Position numbers and translations under genes: made by a program. From Candidatus Lloydbacteria bacterium RIFCSPHIGHO2_02_FULL_50_18 (GTDB lineage: Bacteria > Patescibacteriota > Minisyncoccia > Phycocordibacterales > UBA6899), in the NCBI GenBank assembly GCA_001821395.1, contig MHLM01000012.1, forward strand, positions 84,107 through 148,106: a DNA stretch of 64,000 bases, in the 5' to 3' direction. A model generated the notes under the pieces. It worked only from the letters and a program-made list of their open reading frames with translations, made no database searches and was not told the DNA's origin. This document shows positions 46,049 through 64,000 of this stretch, piece after piece. Numbering within the stretch: the stretch's first letter is position 1; every line of letters begins with the position of its first letter.

Positions 46049-46079
46049 CTTACTCACGTGACAGAATGTGTTATATAAT
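46049..46079 (+). promoter_or_regulatory. sigma70-type promoter (TTACTC ... tgtTATATAAT) for the ATPase gene, near-leaderless
   Basis: TATAAT at 46074-46079 lies 9 nt upstream of the ATG at 46089. Confidence 0.4.
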
Positions 46080-46088
46080 GAACATTCC

Positions 46089-49000
46089 ATGGAGCATCAT
46101 GAAGGACAATTTGAGTCACCCAAGTTTTCTTCGCCGGAAGAAGAGCTGAAGTATCTGCGTGAGCGCGTCGCGCAAAAGGAGCAACAGTTGTGGCAGGAGC
46201 AGGAGCCCGTACAAAAAGAATCAGTGATCTCAGGTCAGGTCCTTGAATATGCAGAGTCGTCACCCGCAGCAAGACTGGAAGAGCACATGATCATCGAAAA
46301 TCCGCAGTTCGAGACGGTAGTTGAGCACTTGAGCTCCCTTCCTCATCGTGAGAAAGTGCGCGAACTATATCGTATCCTTGCCGAAAAAGGCGTCTTGAAT
46401 GCGATCAACGTCGCGCGGGCGCAGAATAATCCGCATATTGAAGAAGACTTCCATCGTGTGCTTGTTGAATATGTAAAGACGGGCGTTCTGGTTCCCGGTC
46501 TTGATAAGGAGAGGGAGCTTGCCAAGGAATTACGTATGACCGTGTTTGAGGTGACTCTTCCCTACGCCGGAGCACAGGAAGGTGTTACACTTGCATCATT
46601 TCATGACGTCGTGACCGCAATGGAGCGCTTTTATATCGGCATGATCCCTCCACCCGGTTCCTCCGCAGCACCGTATGGTCCGATTGCACTCGAGCTCGTG
46701 TTGTCTAATTTTTCAAGTGATATTGTTTTCTTTATCACCGTAGAAGAGCACATGAAGGATCTTTTTGTGAAGCAGATCCTCGGCTCATTCCCCACGGCGA
46801 AGATCGAAGAGTGTCCCGGTGACTTTAATATCTTCAATGAATTCGGTATTTCGGTGGCATCCTATGCTGAACCATTGGGAAATTTTATCTATCCGATACA
46901 ATTAATGGAGGAGGCAGAGAAGGATCCGCTCACGACCATCCTTAATTCTTTCACGAAGATCGAGAGGAACGGTGAGGGTGCCGCAATCCAGATCATACTT
47001 TATCCTGATACCGGAAATATCGACGGAAAGATCAAGTACGGCATCCATCAGTTGGGACAACACGTTCCCGCGTCTCGCGCCACGAATATCCCTCTTTCTA
47101 CGGGGGGTGTCATCACTAAATCGCTGACGGAATTTTTTCATACTCAGCTGAAGACCGAGAAAAAGGATGAGGCCACGCAGGCAAAGGAAGCAGAAACGAA
47201 TGCGAAAGCAAAAGAACTCATGGAAGAGAAGATCAAGGCACCGCTCATCCGGGCAAATATCCGCATCGTTGCTTCTTCGACGACGCGTGAGCGTGCCGAA
47301 ATGATTCGCATGTCGATAGAGGCGGCGTTCAGTCAATTCAATCGACCGCAAGCGGGAGGGGTCAAGTTCACGAAGACGGTGAATAAAAAACTTGAAGAGT
47401 TGCTCCATCATTTTACCTATCGCGAGGTGAACGACAGTGAGGCGCTTATCTTCAATTCAAGAGAACTTGCATATCTTTACCATCTTCCGCTTACGGTATC
47501 TCAAAAGGATGCACCACAACTGAAGACCGTACAGGCATCATCCGCTCCCGCGCCGGCTGACTTGCCGCATGAGGGGACATTGATCGGCGTCAACAAGTAT
47601 CGCGGTGAGTCGCGCGAGATACGGCTAACGAAGGCGGACCGCCTGCGGCATCTCTATACGATCGGACAAACAGGAACAGGGAAGTCCGTCTTCCTCAAAA
47701 ATCTTGCGGTCCAGGACATTTTGGCCGGGAATGGCGTCTGTTTCATTGATCCGCACGGTTCCGACGTACAGGATGTGCTTGCGGCTATACCAAAGGAGCG
47801 CATCGATGACGTGATCTATTTTGATCCTTCCTACACGAAGCGGCCATTTGCACTGAATATGCTGGAATACGATGTTGACCATCCCGAGCAAAAGATCTTT
47901 GTCGTGAATGAAATGCTTGCGATATTCAAGAAACTCTACTCCTCGAGTCCTGAATCAATGGGTCCCGCTTTTGAGCAGTATTTCAGAAATGCGACAATGC
48001 TCGTGATGGAGGATCCTGAAAGCGGGAACACGCTGCTTGAGATACCGCGCGTGCTTGCGGATCCCGCATTTCGCAATCTCAAACTATCGCGTTGCAAGAA
48101 CCCCATTGTGGTGCAGTTCTGGAGAGATATAGCAACGAAGACATCGGGCGAATCCGGTTTGCAGAACATGATTCCCTATATCACCAATAAGTTCGACGTA
48201 TTCATCTCGAATGACGTGATGCGTCCGATCATCGCACAGGAGAAATCCTCGTTCAATTTCCGCGATATTATGGACAACAAGAAGATCCTTCTGGTGAATC
48301 TCGCAAAAGGCAGCCTTGGGGAGATGAATGCAAATCTCCTTGGGCTCATCATTATCGGAAAATTCCTTATGGCGGCAATGTCGCGCGTTGATTCATTCGG
48401 AAAATCGCTTCCTGATTTTTATCTGTACGTCGATGAATTCCAGAACATCGCTACTCCATCGATCTCGGCCATCCTCTCTGAGGCGCGCAAATACGGACTC
48501 TCACTCAATCTTGCTCATCAATTCATCGGTCAACTTCCCGAAGACATCAAGGCGGCAGTTTTTGGTAATGTCGGCAATATGGTGGTGTTCCGCGTCGGCA
48601 CCGAAGACGCGCAGTTTCTGGAGTCTCAGTTTGCGCCGATATTCAAGGCGTCTGACATCATGAAGATCGAGAATCGCAATGCCTATGCGAAGATCCTGAT
48701 TAACGGAAAGCCGGTATCTCCGTTCAATGTCGAAATGCTTCCACCGCCCGAGGGGCACCCCGAAGTTGTTGAGCAGCTGAAGAATCTGTCTTATCTGAAG
48801 TACGGACGGGACCGAAAGATCGTCGATGATGCAATATTGAAACGTTATATGTCCGCGCAACAAAATCCTCAGCCCGCAGGCGTGGCGGCAGTGAGATCAG
48901 TCACACCGATAGCTTCGGTACCCGTCCAATCCGGAGCCGTCGCCCCGGTTCAGTCACAAATTCTTCGTCCGGTCGTTATGTCGGCACCTCTTTCGGTTCC

Positions 49001-49265
49001 CACAGTTCCGGTAAGTGTCCCTCCAGCAACGGCAGTCGTTCCGTTTCCAGCAGTCCCGTTGCCGTCCAGTCCCGTATCTCCTCTCAATACTGCGCCACAA
49101 GCCACAACGCAGTTTGCGCAAGCATTCGTGCGTGCGGATCAAGTGGCACCCTCGAACGTTTCACTCTCTCTACCCGAGATGCCCGCATTCAAGATGGCTG
49201 AGGAGCCGGACAACAAGGTCCCCCCAGTCCCTGGAGCTTTTGGCAGTGTATTTTCCCAAAAATAG
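46089..49265 (+). CDS. HerA/FtsK/TraD-VirD4-superfamily P-loop ATPase with large N-terminal domain and Pro/Val-rich C-terminal tail (1059 aa)
   Basis: Walker A IGQTGTGKS and Walker B LYVDEFQNI precede the LNLAHQ sensor. About 470 aa of unassigned N-terminal sequence. The ORF track began at a GTG at 46068. Confidence 0.65.
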   Translation: MEHHEGQFESPKFSSPEEELKYLRERVAQKEQQLWQEQEPVQKESVISGQVLEYAESSPAARLEEHMIIENPQFETVVEHLSSLPHREKVRELYRILAEKGVLNAINVARAQNNPHIEEDFHRVLVEYVKTGVLVPGLDKERELAKELRMTVFEVTLPYAGAQEGVTLASFHDVVTAMERFYIGMIPPPGSSAAPYGPIALELVLSNFSSDIVFFITVEEHMKDLFVKQILGSFPTAKIEECPGDFNIFNEFGISVASYAEPLGNFIYPIQLMEEAEKDPLTTILNSFTKIERNGEGAAIQIILYPDTGNIDGKIKYGIHQLGQHVPASRATNIPLSTGGVITKSLTEFFHTQLKTEKKDEATQAKEAETNAKAKELMEEKIKAPLIRANIRIVASSTTRERAEMIRMSIEAAFSQFNRPQAGGVKFTKTVNKKLEELLHHFTYREVNDSEALIFNSRELAYLYHLPLTVSQKDAPQLKTVQASSAPAPADLPHEGTLIGVNKYRGESREIRLTKADRLRHLYTIGQTGTGKSVFLKNLAVQDILAGNGVCFIDPHGSDVQDVLAAIPKERIDDVIYFDPSYTKRPFALNMLEYDVDHPEQKIFVVNEMLAIFKKLYSSSPESMGPAFEQYFRNATMLVMEDPESGNTLLEIPRVLADPAFRNLKLSRCKNPIVVQFWRDIATKTSGESGLQNMIPYITNKFDVFISNDVMRPIIAQEKSSFNFRDIMDNKKILLVNLAKGSLGEMNANLLGLIIIGKFLMAAMSRVDSFGKSLPDFYLYVDEFQNIATPSISAILSEARKYGLSLNLAHQFIGQLPEDIKAAVFGNVGNMVVFRVGTEDAQFLESQFAPIFKASDIMKIENRNAYAKILINGKPVSPFNVEMLPPPEGHPEVVEQLKNLSYLKYGRDRKIVDDAILKRYMSAQQNPQPAGVAAVRSVTPIASVPVQSGAVAPVQSQILRPVVMSAPLSVPTVPVSVPPATAVVPFPAVPLPSSPVSPLNTAPQATTQFAQAFVRADQVAPSNVSLSLPEMPAFKMAEEPDNKVPPVPGAFGSVFSQK

Positions 49266-49354
49266 TCTTTAAGTGTCGAAGAATTTCGCTGAAACGTACT
49301 GTTTTTTCGGCATCTTTGCTACAATAAGTTGGCTAACGGGCGCGGAAAATATCT

Positions 49355-49384
49355 TTTGACAAAGTACAAAATTATTGATATAAT
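49355..49384 (+). promoter_or_regulatory. perfect consensus sigma70 promoter TTGACA-N18-TGaTATAAT driving a leaderless mRNA of the giant gene
   Basis: TTGACA at 49355-49360, TG at 49376-49377, TATAAT at 49379-49384. The ATG at 49391 is 6 nt after the -10 hexamer. Confidence 0.6.
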
Positions 49385-49390
49385 GATAAT

Positions 49391-52300
49391 ATGAACGAAT
49401 TTCCTGAAGACATTAAGGTGCAAGGGGAGACGGTTGAAGCGCGCGGTCTGCGCTGGAAAACGGAAGAAGACGATCTGCAGCGCTTGCTTCTGGAAAATAA
49501 TGTTTCGACTGAGGCGTCGGATATGTTGATTGACCAGCTTGCCCGGAAACATCGGACGGAGGAAGAGAACAACGACGTCTTTCCGACCATGGATGATTTC
49601 GACCGCTATGAAAGGGCGATGTCTTTTGGCACATCTGAACGGGGAGAGGATGTATCACCCGCACAAAATGAACCACCTGCCGCGATCGAAGCCGTTGCGA
49701 CGATCGTTGAACGTGAAGAAGAGGATAAGCCCGGGCAACTGTCACAAGAGATGAAGGAGGCGCTCGTGAGAGAATTGAATACGACCAAAGACGAGATCGA
49801 TCAGGCGTGGAGTGTCATTCGCGTCTATGGCGGTGAGAAAAAGGACGGCATCATTCCCGAAAAAAGAACGTACACTGAAGAAGAATTCTTGAATGCAAGG
49901 AGAACATACGATCAATTGCGTACGAAGGCGAAAGAGTTGGCGCTTGAAGTAGCCGGAGGAGAGCAGCTCTTTGGTGCGGTCAAGATTCCCGATCTTGTGG
50001 TGATGGATAGTTATAACGAGAAGGTTTCAGCGAGGACGAGGGATGAGCGTAAAGTAAGGGAGCGTGCACTCCCAAAAGAGGAACGAGATGCATATTACGA
50101 TGCGCTTGCTCGTAAGCGAGCGTTTGTGCAGGCGCTTACCGATAACGGCGTGCGAAAGGATATGGCACTTGGTCTCTATGGCGAGTTCGCCGACAAAGCG
50201 ATCGCTCTTGATAAGTTTTCGCAAGTGCTTGAACATGAATTGAAAGAGGGAGATGCGCCGAAGCTCTCGGGGGGACGAGAATACCATCTGCTGAAGTGGC
50301 ATGGCATCAAAGAAGGTTCGTCGTGGGATGAGATCGCGGCACAGGTCCATGCGCTGCTTGATGCATATCATACCGTTCCTCCTCATGTGGAACGCGTGCG
50401 CGAAGAAGTGCCATCATTAGTACCTCTTATGGATGCAAAGGAGGCAGGGGTCGTTCCCACTACTCAGTCACATGCCGATACTGCAGGAATACCGAGCGCA
50501 CCTTTTTCCGAAATGGATGAGCAGTTTCCGTCCGATGCCGGTGCGGTGGACGAGGCCGTTCCACAGGAGGTGATCGATGGGTGGAAAGAACAGGGCATCA
50601 TGATCAAGCCGGGCACGACGGGAGCGGAGTTAGGAACGATATTGCGAAATGTTGGTGGCGCACGCGGGATGGAATCGATTGCAGCGACCCAAGCGCAGGT
50701 TGAGCTTACGGAGATTGCTCCGGTGGAAGAGACCGACTCGGTCGTACTAGCTCCATTGGTGACTACCGATACAGAGACACCGGCAGAAACACCTATTGAA
50801 GAGGAGGCATTACCTCCCCCGATCGAGGCTGTCGTGTCGGCTCCTTCAGGTGTGGAGGATGTTTTGCCACAAGTGGAGATAAGTCCCGAGCAGCAATCAC
50901 TCACACCGCTATCGTGGGAAGAGGTTGATGCGCAGATGGCAGGTTCTGATCTTGAAGTAGTACAACATGCACGAGCTGAATGGGAGCGGCGGACAAATGC
51001 GGCATTAGCATACAGTAAAGAAAAAGGCACGTTTGGTGCTCTGCGGGAAACTCTGCGTACGATCAGGGATGGTTTTGGTAATACGATCCCCGAAAAATGG
51101 TTGAAAGAATTTCATGAAGTCCCCGATGTGGCACGATATTTGCGCGAACATCCGATTGCCGAGGGAGTCAGTGCCGCGCCGGAAGTTGTTACGACGGTAT
51201 TGTCGAATAAGCAGCTCGAGGATATGGCTGAGGCCGGTCAGTGGGATAACAAAAAAGATACGACTGCAGAGACGGAGTTTGAGATGCGTGAAGGCGGGAA
51301 GAAGAATAAAGAGAATATCTTTCTTGAGAAAGCGATCAGTGCGTTCCGTGCTACCCCGAGTATGGATTTTGCGATGGTCAAGGCCGCGATCGATGCCGGC
51401 AATAAGCCGACAAGTGAAGTGATCGGGGATCTTCTTGCGCGAGGACTCGTCACGCTGACTCCCCCGGGGACATATACATGGGTTGAGACTGCCGATGCGC
51501 CTGAAATTTCCGTCATTCCTGAAACGGAAGCTCTGGATATTCCTTTCATTCCAACTATTCCTACGATCCCGCAGCCGGTGGTTCCTGCCGCATCGCTACC
51601 TGTTGTACCAGAATCTATTCCTCAACTGACACCGCTCCATGAAGCTCCCGCTACGCTCTCTTCCTACGATGCAGCTCTTGAAGAGCAGTGGAACGCACGG
51701 GATAAAAAATTTCAAGCGCCTGACTGGGAGCTTGTTCCGATGGAAAAAGCGGAGTCTGAAGCATCTCCTCAATTAACCGCGGAAGAAGAAAAAGAACTGA
51801 ATGAGGTTGGTACATTATGGGCTTCATTTCTTGATCGTGAATACGGGCTTGATATCGAGGGAAAAGAAATTGCGCCGATTACCGAGGAGGCGGTCATTGC
51901 AAACGGGGAAGCGTTGGAGACACTTGCACTTACTTCAGGTTTACCGGAAGAGGCACTTGGACGTGTCCAAGCCGCGGAAGCGGTCGGCGACACCGTTCCC
52001 GGCGATGTCACATATCAGTTCGAAAGAAAATTCGGAGTGAGCGGAGCAATGCTCGAAAGGATAGCGTCATTCAGCGGCCTCTCGGCCGGGCAGCAATTAC
52101 TTGTCCTCAAAAATCTCGAGCAGCTTACACTTACTGATATCACCAAAGAGGCAAAAGCAAAACAGCAGGCGGAATGGGGAAATACGAAGTGGTGGAAAAG
52201 AGGACTGCAGATGATCGCATCTCTCGGCATGAAGCCGGAGTATCGCACCGCAGAGCTCGAAAAAGAACTGCTCGCAAAAACACAAGAGTCAAAAGCACAG

Positions 52301-54622
52301 CCCGAAACCCCTGAAGCGGTCCACCGAAAGGCGAAGACGCTTTCATACATTGAATCGCTCGCGAAGGTCGCACAAGAAGGACCGGAAGTGATCGTCGAGA
52401 ATGGGGAGCCCCGTACCAATTATCTTTCTTCTAAGGACCTCATTCCACAGAAGGAGGGGGGTACAGTGAGCGAAGAACAGAAAATTACGATCGAGAATTT
52501 CAATCGTTCTGCCAGCGCTTATGCAACAATCCCACATGGATGGACATACGGAACGACCGAACTTTCGAAGGAAGATCGTGCGCAATTTGAGCAAACCAAA
52601 CTTGCTTATGATGTTGCACGTGCGTCCCTGCTTTATTCGTACAAAGACCGCTTCAAAGAAGAGGGAGAAGCTCCCGCTCGTGCGGAGATGCATGCGCTTC
52701 GCGAGATGAACAAGCTTGATGAGCGGGTCACGCTCGATCAGTTGTTCAATAGTAATCCTGATGCTGAAGCGGCTTTGCAGAATATTGCGGACACCTCCGC
52801 GATGACCCGTGCGGCGAAAGAGTTCTGGAAATCGAAGGGCATGTTCATTCTCTATGGTGGTCTTACGCGTGCGGCAGCGGTCTCCGCAGCGGGAGTACTT
52901 GCGGTGCCGACCATGGGCGCATCGATCTATGCCGCTCTCGCCGTGGGCGGGGTGGGCTACGGGGCAGCACTCGGAGCGGGCTATGGCGTAGGACACGGCA
53001 TCGGTCAAAAAGAGGGAAAGAAACTGATGAAAGAAAAGCGTGAAGACGGACGCATGGGTGAGGACGATAAACGAGAGGAGTTTGAATACTCGAGCCCTAT
53101 GCATGATGAAAAGGGGGCGGTCGTGAAGGATCAATTTGGTGAAGCGGTGGTGGAAACAAAGAAGCGCAAGATCAAAGCATTCACCGATGCGACCTTTTTC
53201 ACTGACCGTATCGATACGCTTACCGCAAAGCTTGAGCAATCCCCGACGCCTGAATCTCGCATGTTGATCGAAAAAAAGATCGCGGAGACGGTCGCGCTCA
53301 TGTCTGCAAAACTTTCACGTGGCATGATCAACTTTGCCGGATCCTCGCTTCCCGGAAATGACGTGCGTAAGGGGGAGACGATAGGGAATCGATTGTCATT
53401 TATGCAAGCCATGACGAAGGGTGCGATCGAGACGAGTGTTGATGGTGCAAAACTGGAACAAGAGGCGGAGCGACTGGTCGGTCTTCGCGAGGCTATCATC
53501 ACGGAGGCACAGAAGAATGAGATCAAGCATATCGCCGCAAAAGCAGCAAAAACACGAGCTGCGTTTGCTCTTGCCGGTGCGGGGCTGTCACGTGTTATGA
53601 GTTTTGGTGTTGGGGTCTACCGAGACGGAATGCCAGATATTGCAAAGAATATCGCACGACTTGATCATACTATTGCACAACGTATCTCAAGTGGAGCACC
53701 GGAAAGCATCGAGGAGATCACCGAGATTCCTGCGCCGGAGGAAATAGCTTCAGTACCCAAGTTGGAAATGAGCGCTCATGGCGCGCCGGAACTTGATTTT
53801 CGTGATCCGGCAAGCTACGCCGTTTATATGAAAGAAATGAACAGCGTTTTCGAGCGACAGGTCTCAGCATCTGAGGTGCGGGCATTATGGCAAACAGACG
53901 TACCATCTTCCTCTATGTCGTCTGAATACTATGAGAGTATCCAAGGGAAGACACACAACGCCATTGTCGGGGCAATGTTGGACAAAAATACTCCGCTCAC
54001 CGAGGAAGAGCTCGCTGATATTTATCGGCATTTCGGATACAACGAAACAATGGGGAGACAATTTCCGAATGAAATGGGGCTGGACAAGAATGAAACGATC
54101 ATTGGAGCAGTGAAGCCGTCGCTTCCACTACCGCCACTCCCGTCGGAAATGCCACCGTCACTTCCTCTTCCACCAAATACCTCAACACCCGGAACCGAAA
54201 CATGGGCGAAATTACGGAGGCCGATGCCGGAGGATGCCGTGCTTTCGGACCAGCGAACATTCGGCAGTCAGCCGGAGAATATCTCTCCGCGCATGCCCTT
54301 GAATGAAGTGGCACCACACGTTCCGACCGATGCAGAGATGGCGCTGTCAGTTGCACGAATTGAGACAAGCATTCACCGTTACCTTACGAGTAACGAGGTT
54401 GTTACTTTTAAAAGTCTGAAAACGCTCGAGTTGAGCACGTCAGACCACGAGACGCGCGATATGGTGATCGATGCAGAAAACTTTCTCGTTGAAGAGATGA
54501 CAAAAGGGCCGCTTTCACCTTCGCAAATGTATCATCTCCTCGAACAATATTCGCTCCAAGAAACGATAACCGTCGTTCGGGATGCGGACCTTGAACGAGA
54601 GTTGTTCCAACGAAGACCATAG
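49391..54622 (+). CDS. giant hypothetical protein (1743 aa) with Pro-rich linkers and Gly-zipper TM segments
   Basis: Single uninterrupted ORF. Predicted TM or amphipathic segments lie near residues 1150-1200 (AAVSAAGVLAVPTMGASIYAALAVGGVGYGAALGAGYGVG) and near 1390. All internal opposite-strand ORFs are shadows. Confidence 0.6.
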   Translation: MNEFPEDIKVQGETVEARGLRWKTEEDDLQRLLLENNVSTEASDMLIDQLARKHRTEEENNDVFPTMDDFDRYERAMSFGTSERGEDVSPAQNEPPAAIEAVATIVEREEEDKPGQLSQEMKEALVRELNTTKDEIDQAWSVIRVYGGEKKDGIIPEKRTYTEEEFLNARRTYDQLRTKAKELALEVAGGEQLFGAVKIPDLVVMDSYNEKVSARTRDERKVRERALPKEERDAYYDALARKRAFVQALTDNGVRKDMALGLYGEFADKAIALDKFSQVLEHELKEGDAPKLSGGREYHLLKWHGIKEGSSWDEIAAQVHALLDAYHTVPPHVERVREEVPSLVPLMDAKEAGVVPTTQSHADTAGIPSAPFSEMDEQFPSDAGAVDEAVPQEVIDGWKEQGIMIKPGTTGAELGTILRNVGGARGMESIAATQAQVELTEIAPVEETDSVVLAPLVTTDTETPAETPIEEEALPPPIEAVVSAPSGVEDVLPQVEISPEQQSLTPLSWEEVDAQMAGSDLEVVQHARAEWERRTNAALAYSKEKGTFGALRETLRTIRDGFGNTIPEKWLKEFHEVPDVARYLREHPIAEGVSAAPEVVTTVLSNKQLEDMAEAGQWDNKKDTTAETEFEMREGGKKNKENIFLEKAISAFRATPSMDFAMVKAAIDAGNKPTSEVIGDLLARGLVTLTPPGTYTWVETADAPEISVIPETEALDIPFIPTIPTIPQPVVPAASLPVVPESIPQLTPLHEAPATLSSYDAALEEQWNARDKKFQAPDWELVPMEKAESEASPQLTAEEEKELNEVGTLWASFLDREYGLDIEGKEIAPITEEAVIANGEALETLALTSGLPEEALGRVQAAEAVGDTVPGDVTYQFERKFGVSGAMLERIASFSGLSAGQQLLVLKNLEQLTLTDITKEAKAKQQAEWGNTKWWKRGLQMIASLGMKPEYRTAELEKELLAKTQESKAQPETPEAVHRKAKTLSYIESLAKVAQEGPEVIVENGEPRTNYLSSKDLIPQKEGGTVSEEQKITIENFNRSASAYATIPHGWTYGTTELSKEDRAQFEQTKLAYDVARASLLYSYKDRFKEEGEAPARAEMHALREMNKLDERVTLDQLFNSNPDAEAALQNIADTSAMTRAAKEFWKSKGMFILYGGLTRAAAVSAAGVLAVPTMGASIYAALAVGGVGYGAALGAGYGVGHGIGQKEGKKLMKEKREDGRMGEDDKREEFEYSSPMHDEKGAVVKDQFGEAVVETKKRKIKAFTDATFFTDRIDTLTAKLEQSPTPESRMLIEKKIAETVALMSAKLSRGMINFAGSSLPGNDVRKGETIGNRLSFMQAMTKGAIETSVDGAKLEQEAERLVGLREAIITEAQKNEIKHIAAKAAKTRAAFALAGAGLSRVMSFGVGVYRDGMPDIAKNIARLDHTIAQRISSGAPESIEEITEIPAPEEIASVPKLEMSAHGAPELDFRDPASYAVYMKEMNSVFERQVSASEVRALWQTDVPSSSMSSEYYESIQGKTHNAIVGAMLDKNTPLTEEELADIYRHFGYNETMGRQFPNEMGLDKNETIIGAVKPSLPLPPLPSEMPPSLPLPPNTSTPGTETWAKLRRPMPEDAVLSDQRTFGSQPENISPRMPLNEVAPHVPTDAEMALSVARIETSIHRYLTSNEVVTFKSLKTLELSTSDHETRDMVIDAENFLVEEMTKGPLSPSQMYHLLEQYSLQETITVVRDADLERELFQRRP

Positions 54623-56410: not shown

Positions 56411-57778
56411 ATGTCACAACAAGCAAAAGTCGGTTTTTTCGGCGGAGTCGATTCAGTTACCGGTTCGAACTTTCTGTTTGAGGCGGACGGAAAGCGCATC
56501 CTTATCGATTGCGGTCTGTATCAAGGAGAAAAATACGCCGATGATCGGAATCGTGAGGAATTTGGGTTTGACCCAAAGTCGATCGATATTTTGCTCGTGA
56601 CACACGCACATATTGATCATATCGGACGGATCCCAAAACTCGTGCGCGAAGGTTTCAGCGGGAAAATATATTCAACGCCGCCAACTGAAGAGCTTACGGA
56701 AATAATGCTACTCGACACGACGCGCATACTCGCACATGAAGCGATCGTTGACGGCAGAGAGCCGATCTATACTGAGCGCGACGTGCGCGACACCATGAAA
56801 CTTTGGACATCACACGAGTACTATGCGTCATTTGCCATCACCCCGGCGCTCTCGTGCGAATTCAAGGATGCCGGACATATCCTCGGATCGGCGATGATGT
56901 TCCTCACATGGAACGGAACGACCATGGTATTCACTGGTGACCTCGGTAATTCTCCGACACCGCTCCTTCGTGACACAGACTCGATCAAGGGTGCAACCTA
57001 TCTGCTCATGGAGTCGGTCTATGGTGACCGCAACCACGAGGGACGTGAAGAGCGTAAAGAATTACTCCGTGGGATCATCACCGACTCTATCGCACACGGT
57101 GGAGTGCTCATGATTCCCGCATTCTCGATCGAACGTACACAAGAACTCTTGTTCGAGCTGAATGATCTTGTTGAGCATCATAATCTTCCCGACGTGAAGA
57201 TCTATCTCGATTCACCGCTCGCGATAAAAGCGACCGAAGTCTATCGGAAGAGCGATAAATATTTCAATCAAAATGCGCAGCACATCATCAAGACCGGCGA
57301 TGATGTATTTAAGTTCCCACGGCTCTATTTTACGGAAACAAAGCAGGAATCAATGGAGATATGGGAAACGAAGGGTCCGAAGGTCATCATGGCGGGTTCC
57401 GGAATGGCTAACGGCGGACGCATCGTGCATCACCTGAAGCATTATTTGCATGACTCGAAGAATGTCGTCTTGCTTGTTGGATATCAGGCAGCTGGAACTC
57501 CCGGTCGGAAGCTTGCCGAGGGTGCGAAAGTTGTCCGATTGAACGGTGATGACGTTGCCGTCAAAGCGAAGGTTCTCCAATTGCACGGCTATTCAGGGCA
57601 CAAAGACATGGATCACCTCATGGAGTTTGTTGAGGGTGGGAAAGATACCCTCAAAAAGATTTTTGTTACTATCGGTGAGCCGAAATCCTCGATGTTCCTG
57701 GCGCAGCGTATCCGTGACTATCTCGGTCTCGATGCCATCGTCCCAAGTCCGAAGGATGAGCACACCTTGGAATTTTAA
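56411..57778 (+). CDS. metallo-beta-lactamase / beta-CASP family RNA-metabolising hydrolase (RNase J-like)
   Basis: THAHIDH motif 2, and the Asp/His motifs of the MBL fold. beta-CASP-like C-terminal region (HLSGHADMDHL-like YSGHKDMDHL). Confidence 0.8.
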   Translation: MSQQAKVGFFGGVDSVTGSNFLFEADGKRILIDCGLYQGEKYADDRNREEFGFDPKSIDILLVTHAHIDHIGRIPKLVREGFSGKIYSTPPTEELTEIMLLDTTRILAHEAIVDGREPIYTERDVRDTMKLWTSHEYYASFAITPALSCEFKDAGHILGSAMMFLTWNGTTMVFTGDLGNSPTPLLRDTDSIKGATYLLMESVYGDRNHEGREERKELLRGIITDSIAHGGVLMIPAFSIERTQELLFELNDLVEHHNLPDVKIYLDSPLAIKATEVYRKSDKYFNQNAQHIIKTGDDVFKFPRLYFTETKQESMEIWETKGPKVIMAGSGMANGGRIVHHLKHYLHDSKNVVLLVGYQAAGTPGRKLAEGAKVVRLNGDDVAVKAKVLQLHGYSGHKDMDHLMEFVEGGKDTLKKIFVTIGEPKSSMFLAQRIRDYLGLDAIVPSPKDEHTLEF

Positions 57779-62680: not shown

Positions 62681-62727
62681 TTTCAACCACGGTGCGCTAG
62701 GGCGTATGGTGGTTGAAATTTTTTTGC
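62681..62727 (+). terminator. orphan plus-strand hairpin plus T7 (possible sRNA 3' end)
   Basis: tttcaaccac-17nt-gtggttgaaa plus TTTTTTT. No plus-strand CDS upstream. Confidence 0.3.
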
Positions 62728-62743
62728 CATAAAAAAGCCGCAC

Positions 62744-62766
62744 CTGTTTTTGGTGCGGCGGTGATA
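62744..62766 (-). terminator. terminator for the minus-strand Ubl gene
   Basis: gccgcacc-tgtttttg-ggtgcggc preceded on the plus strand by AAAAAA. Confidence 0.5.
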
Positions 62767-62798: not shown

Positions 62799-63044
62799 TC
62801 AGGAGCCTTGGGGACGTTCAGTGACGCGCAGTTCGACCTTTGCGTCGGCCGGGACAACGGTATCTTCGGTGGCCGGTTTGCCGTTGACGCTCACGTTGCG
62901 ATTCTTGAGGTCAAGGCCAAGTGTTTTGGCCATTTCGCTCACGGTCGTTGCGGTCATCGGGACTTCGACGTCCTTCGTCTCAGTTTTCCCCTTGAGGGGG
63001 ATCTGACTCAGGGTCACGGTCATCGAACCTTTTACTTTTGCCAT
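62799..63044 (-). CDS. small beta-grasp (ThiS/MoaD/ubiquitin-like) protein, 81 aa
   Basis: MAKVKGSMTVTL...VSVNGKPATEDTVVPADAKVELRV matches the ThiS/MoaD pattern. AAGGAG RBS. The C-terminus is ...ERPQGS, with no terminal GG. Confidence 0.55.
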   Translation of the reverse strand: MAKVKGSMTVTLSQIPLKGKTETKDVEVPMTATTVSEMAKTLGLDLKNRNVSVNGKPATEDTVVPADAKVELRVTERPQGS

Positions 63045-63045
63045 T

Positions 63046-63723
63046 TCAATTCTCCTTGATGGGTTGGGGATACACGAACACTTCGGACTCATTTCGTTCG
63101 AGGTGTGCGTACTCGGTTCTACCAGACTTCCAGAACTTTGCCAAGCCCTTCACGGCTTCGGCGGCCACAGCGCTCGAGATATAGATGATGCTGTGCAGCC
63201 CGCACATTTGCCGTGCTGCGTGGCTTGAGTCATAGCTCAGGTAGTGCTCGTAGTGTGCAATGTCTTCCACTTTGCATGGGCGGATGGTGAACACCTGGAA
63301 GAATTCCTCTGCGACCCGAGTATCAATGAGGATGTCCACGAATGGATTCTTTTTCACTATTCGCCAGATTGTTTGCCGTGCTTCCATTGTGTCGACGCAG
63401 CAAACGACGCTTCCTTTGATCGCTTCACCTTCGTATTTTCTCCTTTCGGTTTTGACGACGACTCCGGTATCGCGTAGGATCGTTGCCGCGAGTGCGTCGA
63501 CTTTGTACTTCCCGTAGTCCGAGCGACCATAGAGTGACGGTCCGATGTTGTGCGAATCGATGGAGTCATGATCCCACACGGTGAGATCGGTGACGCCGAT
63601 GCGTGCCAACATTGACGCGACGTGACTTCCGACCGAGCCTGCGCCCAAGAGGTGGACCGCCCTGACTTCTTTAGGGGAAATGAAATTACGCTGCTGAGAG
63701 AAATTTAGCTCATTCGAACTCAT
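63046..63723 (-). CDS. E1-like ThiF/MoeB-family adenylyltransferase (225 aa)
   Basis: Rossmann LLGAGSVGSHVASMLARIGVTDLTVWDHDSIDSHNI and VCCVDTMEARQ. GGAGG RBS. ATGA overlap with the upstream gene. Confidence 0.7.
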   Translation of the reverse strand: MSSNELNFSQQRNFISPKEVRAVHLLGAGSVGSHVASMLARIGVTDLTVWDHDSIDSHNIGPSLYGRSDYGKYKVDALAATILRDTGVVVKTERRKYEGEAIKGSVVCCVDTMEARQTIWRIVKKNPFVDILIDTRVAEEFFQVFTIRPCKVEDIAHYEHYLSYDSSHAARQMCGLHSIIYISSAVAAEAVKGLAKFWKSGRTEYAHLERNESEVFVYPQPIKEN

Positions 63724-64000
63724 GTATTTACCTCCGTTGTGTTCGATTCTTCGAGTGGCCATTCTTCGATCTTATGCCATATGACGAGGTCCGGCGTGTA
63801 GCTCTCAAGCCACAAAAGAATGTAGTTGAGTGCATCCGCATATTCATGCTCCACCAAAGCGTCGTCGACAGTCGCGCCGATATTTCCGAGGCATTGGCCG
63901 TTATGGGCTGAGATGTGTGGATGGGGCTCGCCCGTCGGGTGACATGATTCTTCCACCCATACGAGTGCGGCACCATCGAGTTCGAAGTGAACGGTAAATG
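63720..64000 (-). CDS. UBC/E2-like protein, 5'-truncated by window edge
   Basis: HPHISAHNGQCL has the same spacing as the E2 HPN-x7-C motif HPNIxxxGxICL. It is followed by ALNYILLWLESYTPD, similar to E2 LLSIxxLLxxPNPxxP. Confidence 0.45.
   Translation of the reverse strand, partial: FTVHFELDGAALVWVEESCHPTGEPHPHISAHNGQCLGNIGATVDDALVEHEYADALNYILLWLESYTPDLVIWHKIEEWPLEESNTTEVNT

Follow-up and report, generated by a model that had tools for sequence, protein, structure and literature searches.

Near one edge of the window (the whole 64,000-nucleotide stretch of DNA that was analysed), three translationally coupled genes lie on the minus strand in the order E2L, E1 and Ubl, with a strong terminator at the end. 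The features are as follows.

63720 to 64000, minus strand: 3′ end of the E2-like gene E2L (last 92 codons and stop), by translation; the gene continues past the window.
63891 to 63923, minus strand: E2-type motif H404-P405-H406-x7-C414 of E2L, read from the sequence (P0001 numbering).
63046 to 63723, minus strand: E1-like adenylating enzyme, 225 amino acids, with a single ThiF-type domain (Pfam ThiF).
63628 to 63645, minus strand: E1 nucleotide-binding loop G27-A-G29-S-V-G32 (GAGSVG), read from the sequence.
63202 to 63204, minus strand: TGC codon of E1 Cys174, candidate catalytic (thioester) cysteine, from conservation among E1s.
62799 to 63044, minus strand: Ubl, a putative beta-grasp protein of 81 amino acids with the C-terminus E-R-P-Q-G80-S81-stop, by translation.
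62727 to 62759, minus strand: intrinsic terminator, an 8-bp stem with seven G-C pairs, then a T6 run.

The TGA of E2L (63722-63720) overlaps the ATG of E1 (63723-63721) in the sequence ATGA, and a single nucleotide separates the E1 stop codon from the Ubl start. The terminator RNA has a predicted fold of -23.8 kcal/mol (z = -3.7). All three reading frames are intact in the window; E1 and Ubl are complete, and E2L continues beyond it. The operon probably encodes a self-contained, three-gene ubiquitination-like cascade for protein conjugation in Candidatus Lloydbacteria (Parcubacteria/CPR).

The part of E2L within the window reads ...GEPHPHISAHNGQCLGN... and contains the motif codons for His (63923-63921), Pro (63920-63918), His (63917-63915) and Cys (63893-63891), the last of which would encode the thioester cysteine. 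The H-P-H-x7-C spacing is that of the E2 motif HPN-x7-C, so the His-Pro-x and Cys pair described in the first-pass annotation is confirmed at the level of codons. That annotation took the gene for a small, stand-alone E2, an idea that must be given up: on contigs that match the window exactly (L001-L003), the full gene encodes a multidomain protein of 470 amino acids (L001:7913-9325; NCBI OGZ06346.1, UniProt A0A1G2CY93). The three proteins of the operon are OGZ06344-6. About 340 residues, comprising two domains and a helical hairpin, precede the UBC-fold domain. The order is a variable N-terminal domain, a conserved GATase1/GH42-M-like middle domain, the long helical hairpin and the C-terminal UBC-fold domain.

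Evidence of three independent kinds argues for a UBC/E2 fold in this C-terminal domain, with the Cys in its proper place, as had been anticipated. First, an AF2 model was made for P0001, a 92%-identical homologue of the window E2L whose residue numbers we follow; its pLDDT was 81 with a 23-sequence alignment and 50 with an 8-sequence alignment. The predicted domain has an N-terminal helix, a four-stranded beta-meander, an active-site loop and C-terminal helices, and the Cys sits in the loop that follows the meander, 8-10 residues downstream of the HPN-type motif. Second, an hhalign comparison of the domain profile with approximate sequences of five human E2s gave a probability of 86.5% (E 4.6e-6) and aligned HPH/C on HPN/C; negative controls gave 0.7% and 0.08%. 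Third, the only matches of the domain profile among PDB sequences were chains of UBE2L3, in register.

Other searches with E2L were negative. The full-length profile retrieved only coiled-coil noise from the PDB sequences, and Foldseek of the model against PDB and BFVD gave nothing significant. Across 86 E2-like proteins, Pfam and NCBIfam models, including those of E2 families, gave no match; for E2L itself, nothing in Pfam, NCBIfam or the PDB sequences reached significance, and PADLOC models left the window fragment unmatched. After the Cys, E2L departs from canonical E2s, with CFGN as opposed to CLDIL and no Trp at Cys+8. In the Ube2w family, too, HPH stands where other E2s have HPN (PMC4630614).

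H404, P405, H406, C414 and G416 are invariant in all 86 diverse homologues of E2L, which extend down to 18% identity with P0001. Across the same alignment, no Cys, His or Ser that might act as a nucleophile is conserved in the middle domain. As an alternative to an E2 active site, H398, H404 and H406 could form a metal site with C414. RWD and UEV domains, which share the UBC fold, have no catalytic Cys. It is extremely unlikely that E2L is an inert protein of this type, or that the operon is a decaying remnant, a reading we rejected: the Cys and HPH are present in every E2L member, contrary to RWD and UEV proteins, the three reading frames are all intact, and the family spans about 1090 clusters at 50% identity.

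The E2L-E1-Ubl trio occurs in every related locus that is long enough to show all three genes (L001-3, L005, L007-9, L013-L019 and L020-L031). These loci range from 42 to 68% GC and have unrelated neighbourhoods. E2L and E1 are translationally coupled and are inherited together everywhere. Given this recurrence and the invariant HPH...C in 86 homologues, the observation in the window is not due to chance. The first-pass annotation had suggested a JAB peptidase further upstream, but none was found: the extended contigs and the called neighbours of the trio loci have no JAB or Prok-JAB domain, and no reading frame of the window has a JAMM motif. Distant phage-like relatives (L034-L036 and L038) do carry JAB. 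DUF6527 and CD-NTase are absent from all trio loci, ParB and PRTRC genes do not occur near the genes, and no export or immunity gene is conserved near the trio. A tblastn search of INPHARED phages and PLSDB plasmids with E2L was negative, and a scan with a degenerate DNA motif gave three chance matches in GTDB species genomes and none in IMG/VR. Literature searches turned up nothing relevant on ubiquitin-like systems of CPR/Patescibacteria, and nothing on the E2-like family.

Judged by its sequence, E1 is an adenylating enzyme of the ThiF superfamily with an invariant Cys. The ATGA-overlapped ThiF/MoeB-type gene and its intact GxGxxG loop were correctly recognized from the outset: the loop reads GAGSVG, and the Pfam ThiF match has an E-value of 2.7e-16 (59.9 bits, cutoff 28.1 bits). 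G27, G29 and G32 are each kept in 25 of 26 distinct E1s, and D51, D53, H58, N59, K74, D111, R116, R136 and C174 are conserved across the 26. Cys174 is present in all of them, including relatives with 26-33% identity. From its spacing after VD111-x-M-x-x-R116, it may be equivalent to C184 of ThiF, C187 of MoeB and C250 of UBA5. Family members are 215-225 amino acids long with one ThiF domain, and E1-E2 models of PADLOC match only residues 21-89 of E1, the Rossmann segment (E down to 1e-15). The score against the PRTRC ThiF equivalog is 37.9 bits, below the cutoff of 144.75.

The solved structures closest to E1 are UBA5, TcdA, MccB and Cap2, and PaaA is also among them. The presence of MccB and PaaA raises the prospect that E1 modifies the Ubl C-terminus in a maturation reaction and that no conjugation follows, with E2L as a scaffold or a cysteine peptidase that processes Ubl. 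The unusual Gly-Ser and Gly-Asn termini would fit such a role, as would the invariant Cys of E2L with three conserved His nearby, a possible protease dyad or metal site, and the rest of the operon encodes no peptidase. However, the substrate would be a folded protein of 80 amino acids with a probable beta-grasp, as opposed to a short peptide, conserved export and immunity genes are absent nearby, and the predicted fold and motif register of E2L fit E2s and no known peptidase fold. We regard this maturation as quite improbable.

The third gene had been described as an 81-residue beta-grasp protein, and profile comparison points the same way. A profile of 17 Ubl sequences matches PF1061 (1rws, E 3.4e-4) and SAMP2 (5lda_B, E 6.1e-4) almost from end to end, which suggests a SAMP2/ThiS-type beta-grasp protein. 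The Pfam SAMP2 model scores 19.1 bits, under its 27-bit cutoff, NCBIfam models likewise stay below cutoff, and the hhalign comparison with E. coli ThiS is weak. Of the kinds of family-model search proposed in the first-pass annotation, ThiF gave a match above cutoff, the models for the Ubl fell short and those for E2 gave no match.

A sulfur-carrier pair of the ordinary ThiS-ThiF or MoaD-MoeB kind, serving thiamine, molybdopterin or tRNA thiolation next to an unrelated upstream gene, might be suspected from the similarity of Ubl to ThiS and SAMP2 and from the best NCBIfam match of E1, which is ThiF PRK08644 (E 1.6e-14). Yet E1 reaches no NCBIfam equivalog cutoff, and its scores against the ThiF/MoeB equivalog models are far too low (at best 54 bits against a cutoff of 159, and 43.8 against 275). 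E1 also has no CxxC zinc motif, and Ubl ends in Gly-Ser in place of Gly-Gly. The trio neighbourhoods examined contain no thiG, thiC, thiH, moaE or rhodanese gene, and the gene coupled to E1 and always inherited with it encodes a domain that matches the UBC fold. Contradicted on all these counts, the sulfur-carrier reading was rejected, and we consider it to have almost no chance of being right. The recurrence of the trio and the lack of sulfur-pathway genes favour the original view of the three genes as one conjugation module.

The Ubl tail ends with codons for Gly (62807-62805) and Ser (62804-62802). The penultimate Gly never varies, and over the wider family no other tail residue is invariant; the residue after it is Ser in CPR and Asn or Ala in distant relatives. 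Among the 13 aligned CPR Ubls, which are 25-70% identical to the window Ubl, Ser occupies the last position in every case. In distant relatives with Gly-Ala or Gly-Asn tails, a Prok-JAB gene adjoins E1, and one distant relative (L033) encodes a head-to-tail tandem di-Ubl, both repeats of which end in KGN. The JAB genes of the distant phage-like relatives and the tandem di-Ubl suggest that Ubl is a capped precursor, in line with the processing that the QGS tail had hinted at; the arrangement of Gly plus one residue is conserved family-wide.

Eukaryotic ubiquitin precursors have variable caps. Because the Ser of the CPR Ubls is, by contrast, invariant despite their divergence, it may stay on the protein, and the chemistry may be of another kind. 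The same three proteins would then operate with Ser81 in place, E1 activating the Ser81 carboxylate, or would use non-canonical chemistry such as ester intermediates or non-lysine or N-terminal targets. All CPR trios are without a peptidase, E1-superfamily enzymes such as MccB use non-Gly termini, HPH is a Ube2w-type motif, and Bub shows that unexpected chemistry is possible in bacterial cascades. We nevertheless find an untrimmed Ser unlikely: across the family only the penultimate Gly is invariant, with Ser, Asn or Ala at the last position, relatives with Gly-Ala tails have an adjoining JAB peptidase, and the di-Ubl repeats resemble a precursor of polyubiquitin type.

From the gene anatomy, the assignments to folds and families, the invariant catalytic-type residues and the conservation of the operon, we infer a conjugation cascade, from Ser trimming and dimerisation to each chemical step and the target. 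The SAMP2/ThiS-like Ubl of 81 amino acids would be produced as a precursor (...Q-G-S) in which a single residue forms the cap. Removal of Ser81 would expose Gly80. The operon has no JAB, and this step may fall to the N-terminal half of E2L (residues 1-255), which is conserved, or to a host peptidase. The minimal single-domain E1, which probably forms a homodimer as ThiF, MoeB and UBA5 do, would adenylate the Ubl C-terminus and then hold Ubl on Cys174. Ubl would be handed to Cys414 in the UBC-fold domain of E2L, where His406 of HPH may stand in for the asparagine of HPN, and E2L would move it onto a target amine. The operon encodes no E3, and targeting may occur via the variable N-terminal domain, the GATase1/GH42-M-like domain and the helical hairpin of E2L. 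It is also possible, but improbable, that this is a CPR-specific, JAB-less pathway working unlike the characterised systems, in which Gly-Ser is activated untrimmed or the N-terminal half of E2L is a new Ubl-processing peptidase; the UBE2W-like HPH might then direct N-terminal or non-lysine modification.

Bil (BilABCD, formerly 6C/CEHH) is a bacterial ubiquitination-like antiphage system (PMC10557695). The trio resembles it in having separate genes for Ubl, E1 and a cysteine-type E2 within one operon, in encoding no E3, so that the E2 presumably chooses targets, and, by prediction, in a Ubl C-terminus that must be processed to expose Gly (PMC10557695). However, the JAB peptidase BilC is always present in Bil and missing here, the large Bil E1 has IAD, AAD and CYS domains whereas the trio E1 has a single domain of 225 amino acids, and the E2 of the trio is the C-terminal domain of a 470-residue protein with HPH-x7-C. 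The locus is accordingly not a Bil system, contrary to one earlier suggestion. Bub (6E/DUF6527) is likewise a bacterial cascade of E1, E2 and Ubl, often without JAB (Type II). It uses Tyr and Ser oxyesters, no catalytic cysteines and a DUF6527 serine protease, and its proteins are fused as Ubl-E2, JAB-E1 or E2-E1 (PMC11601596). By contrast, the trio has an invariant Cys in both E1 and E2L, separate genes and no DUF6527.

Type II CBASS shares the Rossmann core of its E1, and one of the solved E1 relatives is Cap2. This protein fuses E1 with E2, conjugates a CD-NTase and is accompanied by the JAB protein Cap3. The trio has no CD-NTase, effector, fusion or JAB, so membership in the CBASS Cap2 group, the other earlier suggestion, also fails. 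Operon types 6a-6e of Iyer, Burroughs and Aravind (2006) are likewise predicted operons in which E1-like and E2-like genes accompany a Ubl gene. A JAB domain invariably occurs there, as a fusion or next door (PMC1779556), whereas the CPR trio has none and only the distant phage-like loci do.

Archaeal sampylation through SAMP2 and UbaA is similar in its single-domain E1 and in SAMP2, which with PF1061 is the nearest match of our Ubl by profile. To our knowledge, sampylation uses no E2. SAMPs have a Gly-Gly C-terminus. The trio E1 scores 23 bits against the UbaA model, whose cutoff is 450 bits. The eukaryotic UFM1 system (UBA5 and UFC1) and the E2s of the Ube2w family have very low sequence identity to the trio, and E2L differs in its roughly 340 N-terminal residues and in the motifs after the Cys. 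The eukaryotic resemblance is a lead as opposed to membership, with no sign of direct descent. The E2L family is without a matching Pfam or NCBIfam model, and the trio does not correspond to any bacterial system described so far. We rate the locus as a new variant among bacterial ubiquitination-like systems, with a predicted biochemistry.

The E1/E2/Ubl cascades of CBASS-Cap2, Bil and Bub have recently altered views on the origin of ubiquitination. Their tie to antiphage immunity is experimental for CBASS and Bil and inferred for Bub. For the present locus, a link to defence would be by extension, and our leading, tentative guess at its biological role is a part in conflict with phages or mobile elements. 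The locus adds a compact, apparently complete cascade with a minimal UBA5/ThiF-like E1, no JAB and no E3, a cysteine E2 with a rare HPH motif that is fused to putative target-binding domains, and a SAMP2-like Ubl whose Gly-Ser terminus is conserved. Its hosts are ultra-small, uncultured CPR bacteria. If active, the trio would be small and tractable enough to serve as a model for the transfer from E1 to E2 and for targeting without an E3, and would add a new case to the gain and loss of processing peptidases in ubiquitination-like pathways.

The window encodes three closely packed reading frames at 62799-64000 on the minus strand: an E2-like protein (E2L), an E1 and a ubiquitin-like protein (Ubl).

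Running over the window edge, minus strand: last 92 codons of the E2L gene (...FTVHFELDGAALVWVEESCHPTGEPHPHISAHNGQCLGN...WHKIEEWPLEESNTTEVNT, stop), the rest lying beyond the edge
63723-63720, minus strand: ATGA in which the E2L TGA and the E1 ATG overlap
Starting in that overlap, minus strand: E1 reading frame, 225 aa
One base past the E1 stop, minus strand: Ubl reading frame, 81 aa, C-terminus ERPQGS, stop
62759-62737, minus strand: G+C-rich hairpin of 8 bp, then T6, 40 nt downstream of the Ubl reading frame

Because the packing, overlap, one-base gap and QGS end are all present, the description of this trio in the first-pass annotation is accurate. The hairpin RNA folds at -23.8 kcal/mol (z -3.7). 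The identical 81-aa Ubl occurs on longer contigs, including NCBI MHLI01000004.1 (Candidatus Lloydbacteria MAG), on which the truncated E2L gene encodes 470 aa (OGZ06346.1, annotated 'hypothetical'). Downstream of the trio, the longer exact-match contigs carry pepP, infC, rpmI and rplT. No thi, moa or JAB/MPN genes were found on these contigs, which extend past the window edge, so the JAB/MPN peptidase previously suggested upstream is not there.

Two other regions of the window are worth recording.

46068-54622, plus strand: two adjoining very large ORFs (1065 aa and 1743 aa), the larger without a Pfam match on record
56411-57778, plus strand: 455-aa metallo-beta-lactamase/beta-CASP protein

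The precomputed Pfam list for the latter has Anti-Pycsar_Apyc1 (PF23023), probably only because RNase J-like enzymes resemble MBL proteins in general.

The E1 matches Pfam ThiF above its cutoff (E 2.7e-16), and the nucleotide loop, D51, D53, H58, N59, K74, D111, R116 and R136 are kept in at least 25 of 26 distinct E1s; the match and the loop bear out its earlier assignment as a ThiF-type E1. It approached none of the NCBIfam equivalogs ThiF, MoeB, UbaA, PRTRC, TcdA and 6A-MBL cap2, and a profile search places it closest, among solved structures, to UBA5, TcdA, MccB, PaaA and Cap2. CxxC zinc motifs and extra domains are absent. Cys174 is present in all 26 distinct E1s from related loci and, judging by the VD111xMxxR116 spacing, presumably takes the place of ThiF C184, MoeB C187 and UBA5 C250.

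E2L has no Pfam or NCBIfam match, PADLOC gave none for its window fragment, and its family profile has no significant match among PDB sequences. An exhaustive HMM search found 1090 family clusters (50% identity) at E<=1e-3 and 308 at E<=1e-10, with proteins mostly of 440-560 aa. Among 86 members, whose identity to the reference homologue P0001 (92% identical to the window protein, and the basis of residue numbering) goes down to 18%, H404, P405, H406, C414, G416, Y445 and W458 are invariant and H398 is nearly so. The consensus is HPxGxPHPH[IV]xxxGxxC[FLY]GN...R[YF]ADA...WL..GY.P.LA..KIEEWP. An AF2 model of P0001 (pLDDT 81) has four parts.

About residues 15-94: small N-terminal domain
Residues 111-255: alpha/beta middle domain
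Residues 268-343: long helical hairpin
C-terminal domain: helix, beta-meander, loop with HPH...C, three helices

The C-terminal-domain profile matched five human E2s, whose sequences were entered by hand, with 86.5% probability (E 4.6e-6), compared with 0.7% and 0.08% for control comparisons, and the alignment places HPH and Cys exactly on the E2 HPN and Cys. Against PDB sequences, this profile found only UBE2L3 chains, in register, at an E of about 0.12 that is not significant alone. HPH in place of HPN, with unchanged spacing, is reported as a hallmark of the Ube2w family, in which the second His is thought to replace the oxyanion-stabilising Asn (PMC4630614). The C-terminal domain is probably a diverged, catalytic UBC-fold E2 domain, with the caveats that Foldseek did not find the UBC-fold likeness and that features past the Cys deviate from canonical E2s. 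The HPx-Cys pair of the first-pass annotation is confirmed. Pfam and NCBIfam E2 families matched 0/86 diverse relatives.

As a single sequence, the Ubl matches Pfam SAMP2 (E 0.0018) and NCBIfam PRK06437 (E 1.6e-6) weakly, under both cutoffs. A profile built from 17 sequences matches PF1061 of Pyrococcus (E 3.4e-4) and also SAMP2 (E 6.1e-4), with alignments that span nearly the full length. Only P16, G19 and the penultimate Gly are invariant across all 17 Ubls, and 13/13 aligned CPR Ubls end in E-[RLK]-x-[QKR]-G-S.

More distant E1s, with 26-33% identity, lie on phage-like metagenome contigs of low GC (L numbers denote related loci).

L036:58-1846: short 200-aa E2L-like protein, Prok-JAB gene (E 1.5e-5), E1
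L038:1459-2900: JAB-like gene adjoining E1
L034:619-2089 and L035:73-1539: Ubl with KGA end, weakly JAB-like 233-aa protein, E1
L033:1988-5023 (metagenome contig Ga0233432_10000750, GC 41%): E1, Ubl, 596-aa E2L

The L033 Ubl, like polyubiquitin, comprises head-to-tail units, here two beta-grasp units each closed by VKEVKGN, and the L033 E2L carries APH-x7-C. Neighbours of L033 include genes for an HNH endonuclease and a DHH phosphoesterase, the latter matching a phage PHROG; L038 also has Cas4-like exonuclease and DnaB genes. The ending in Gly plus one residue, the adjacent JAB and the polyubiquitin-like repeats argue that the last Ubl residue is a removable cap, which would be cut off to free the Gly. 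JAB has been lost from the CPR trio, whose E2L bears a long N-terminal region. The weakest points of the mechanism proposed below are that the terminal Ser is strictly conserved and that no peptidase to take off Ser81 was found; they leave room for a less likely variant in which Ser81 is retained.

Wherever a related locus is long enough to show the gene order, it is E2L-E1-Ubl, with genes overlapping or nearly abutting. Trio-bearing loci have a GC of 42-68%. Their source names are Patescibacteria or Parcubacteria, except for two MAGs that carry the labels Binatia and Eisenbacteria. Their surroundings vary.

L001 (exact-match contig), L007: pepP-infC-rpmI-rplT
L021: infC alone
L009:2483-12761 (MAG): trio in a ~10-kb insertion between rpsS and rplB, splitting the S10 ribosomal-protein operon
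L013:1-2440, L015:238-1458, L016:5330-7857, L018:700-4582, L029:2967-4181: Exo_endo_phos (PF03372) genes directly 5' of the trio, same strand
L019, L025: divergent RNase_H_2 gene beside the trio
L021:4534-6484: LexA repressor gene divergent from an ADP-ribosylglycohydrolase gene, the latter directly before E2L

The L009 insertion also holds NUDIX, LigB, MFS, DUF2726, RelA_SpoT and MerR genes. Exo_endo_phos paralogues of roughly 400 aa occur one to three in tandem in the high-GC clade, and once about 5 kb upstream of the L007 trio; they could be effectors or targets. The LexA gene of L021, a single case, hints at SOS control. No neighbour is conserved with the trio across all loci, and given these differing neighbourhoods we consider the trio a self-contained module.

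A degenerate DNA pattern that covers 75/157 collected family proteins (the window gene included by design) found no true family member in 185,579 GTDB species genomes or IMG/VR. Several NCBI MAGs carry the E2L gene despite this null; perhaps these MAGs are not among the species representatives, or the trio sits in regions that bin poorly.

In its general plan the trio works like Bil, Bub and CBASS-Cap2, yet it lacks the defining features of each: the JAB and multidomain E1 of Bil, the DUF6527 and Ser/Tyr chemistry of Bub, and the CD-NTase and E1-E2 fusion of CBASS. Without JAB, it also differs from types 6a-6e of a 2006 survey, in which JAB is reported to be always adjacent or fused (PMC1779556). 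The trio also falls short of the sulfur-carrier, PRTRC and SAMP/UbaA models.

Given its anatomy and homology, a ubiquitination-like cascade is the best-supported reading of the trio, although we infer the chemistry. Removal of Ser81 would mature the Ubl, which the E1 would adenylate and then hold as a thioester on Cys174. The Ubl would be handed to Cys414 of E2L and, without an E3, would go to a target picked by the N-terminal domains of E2L.
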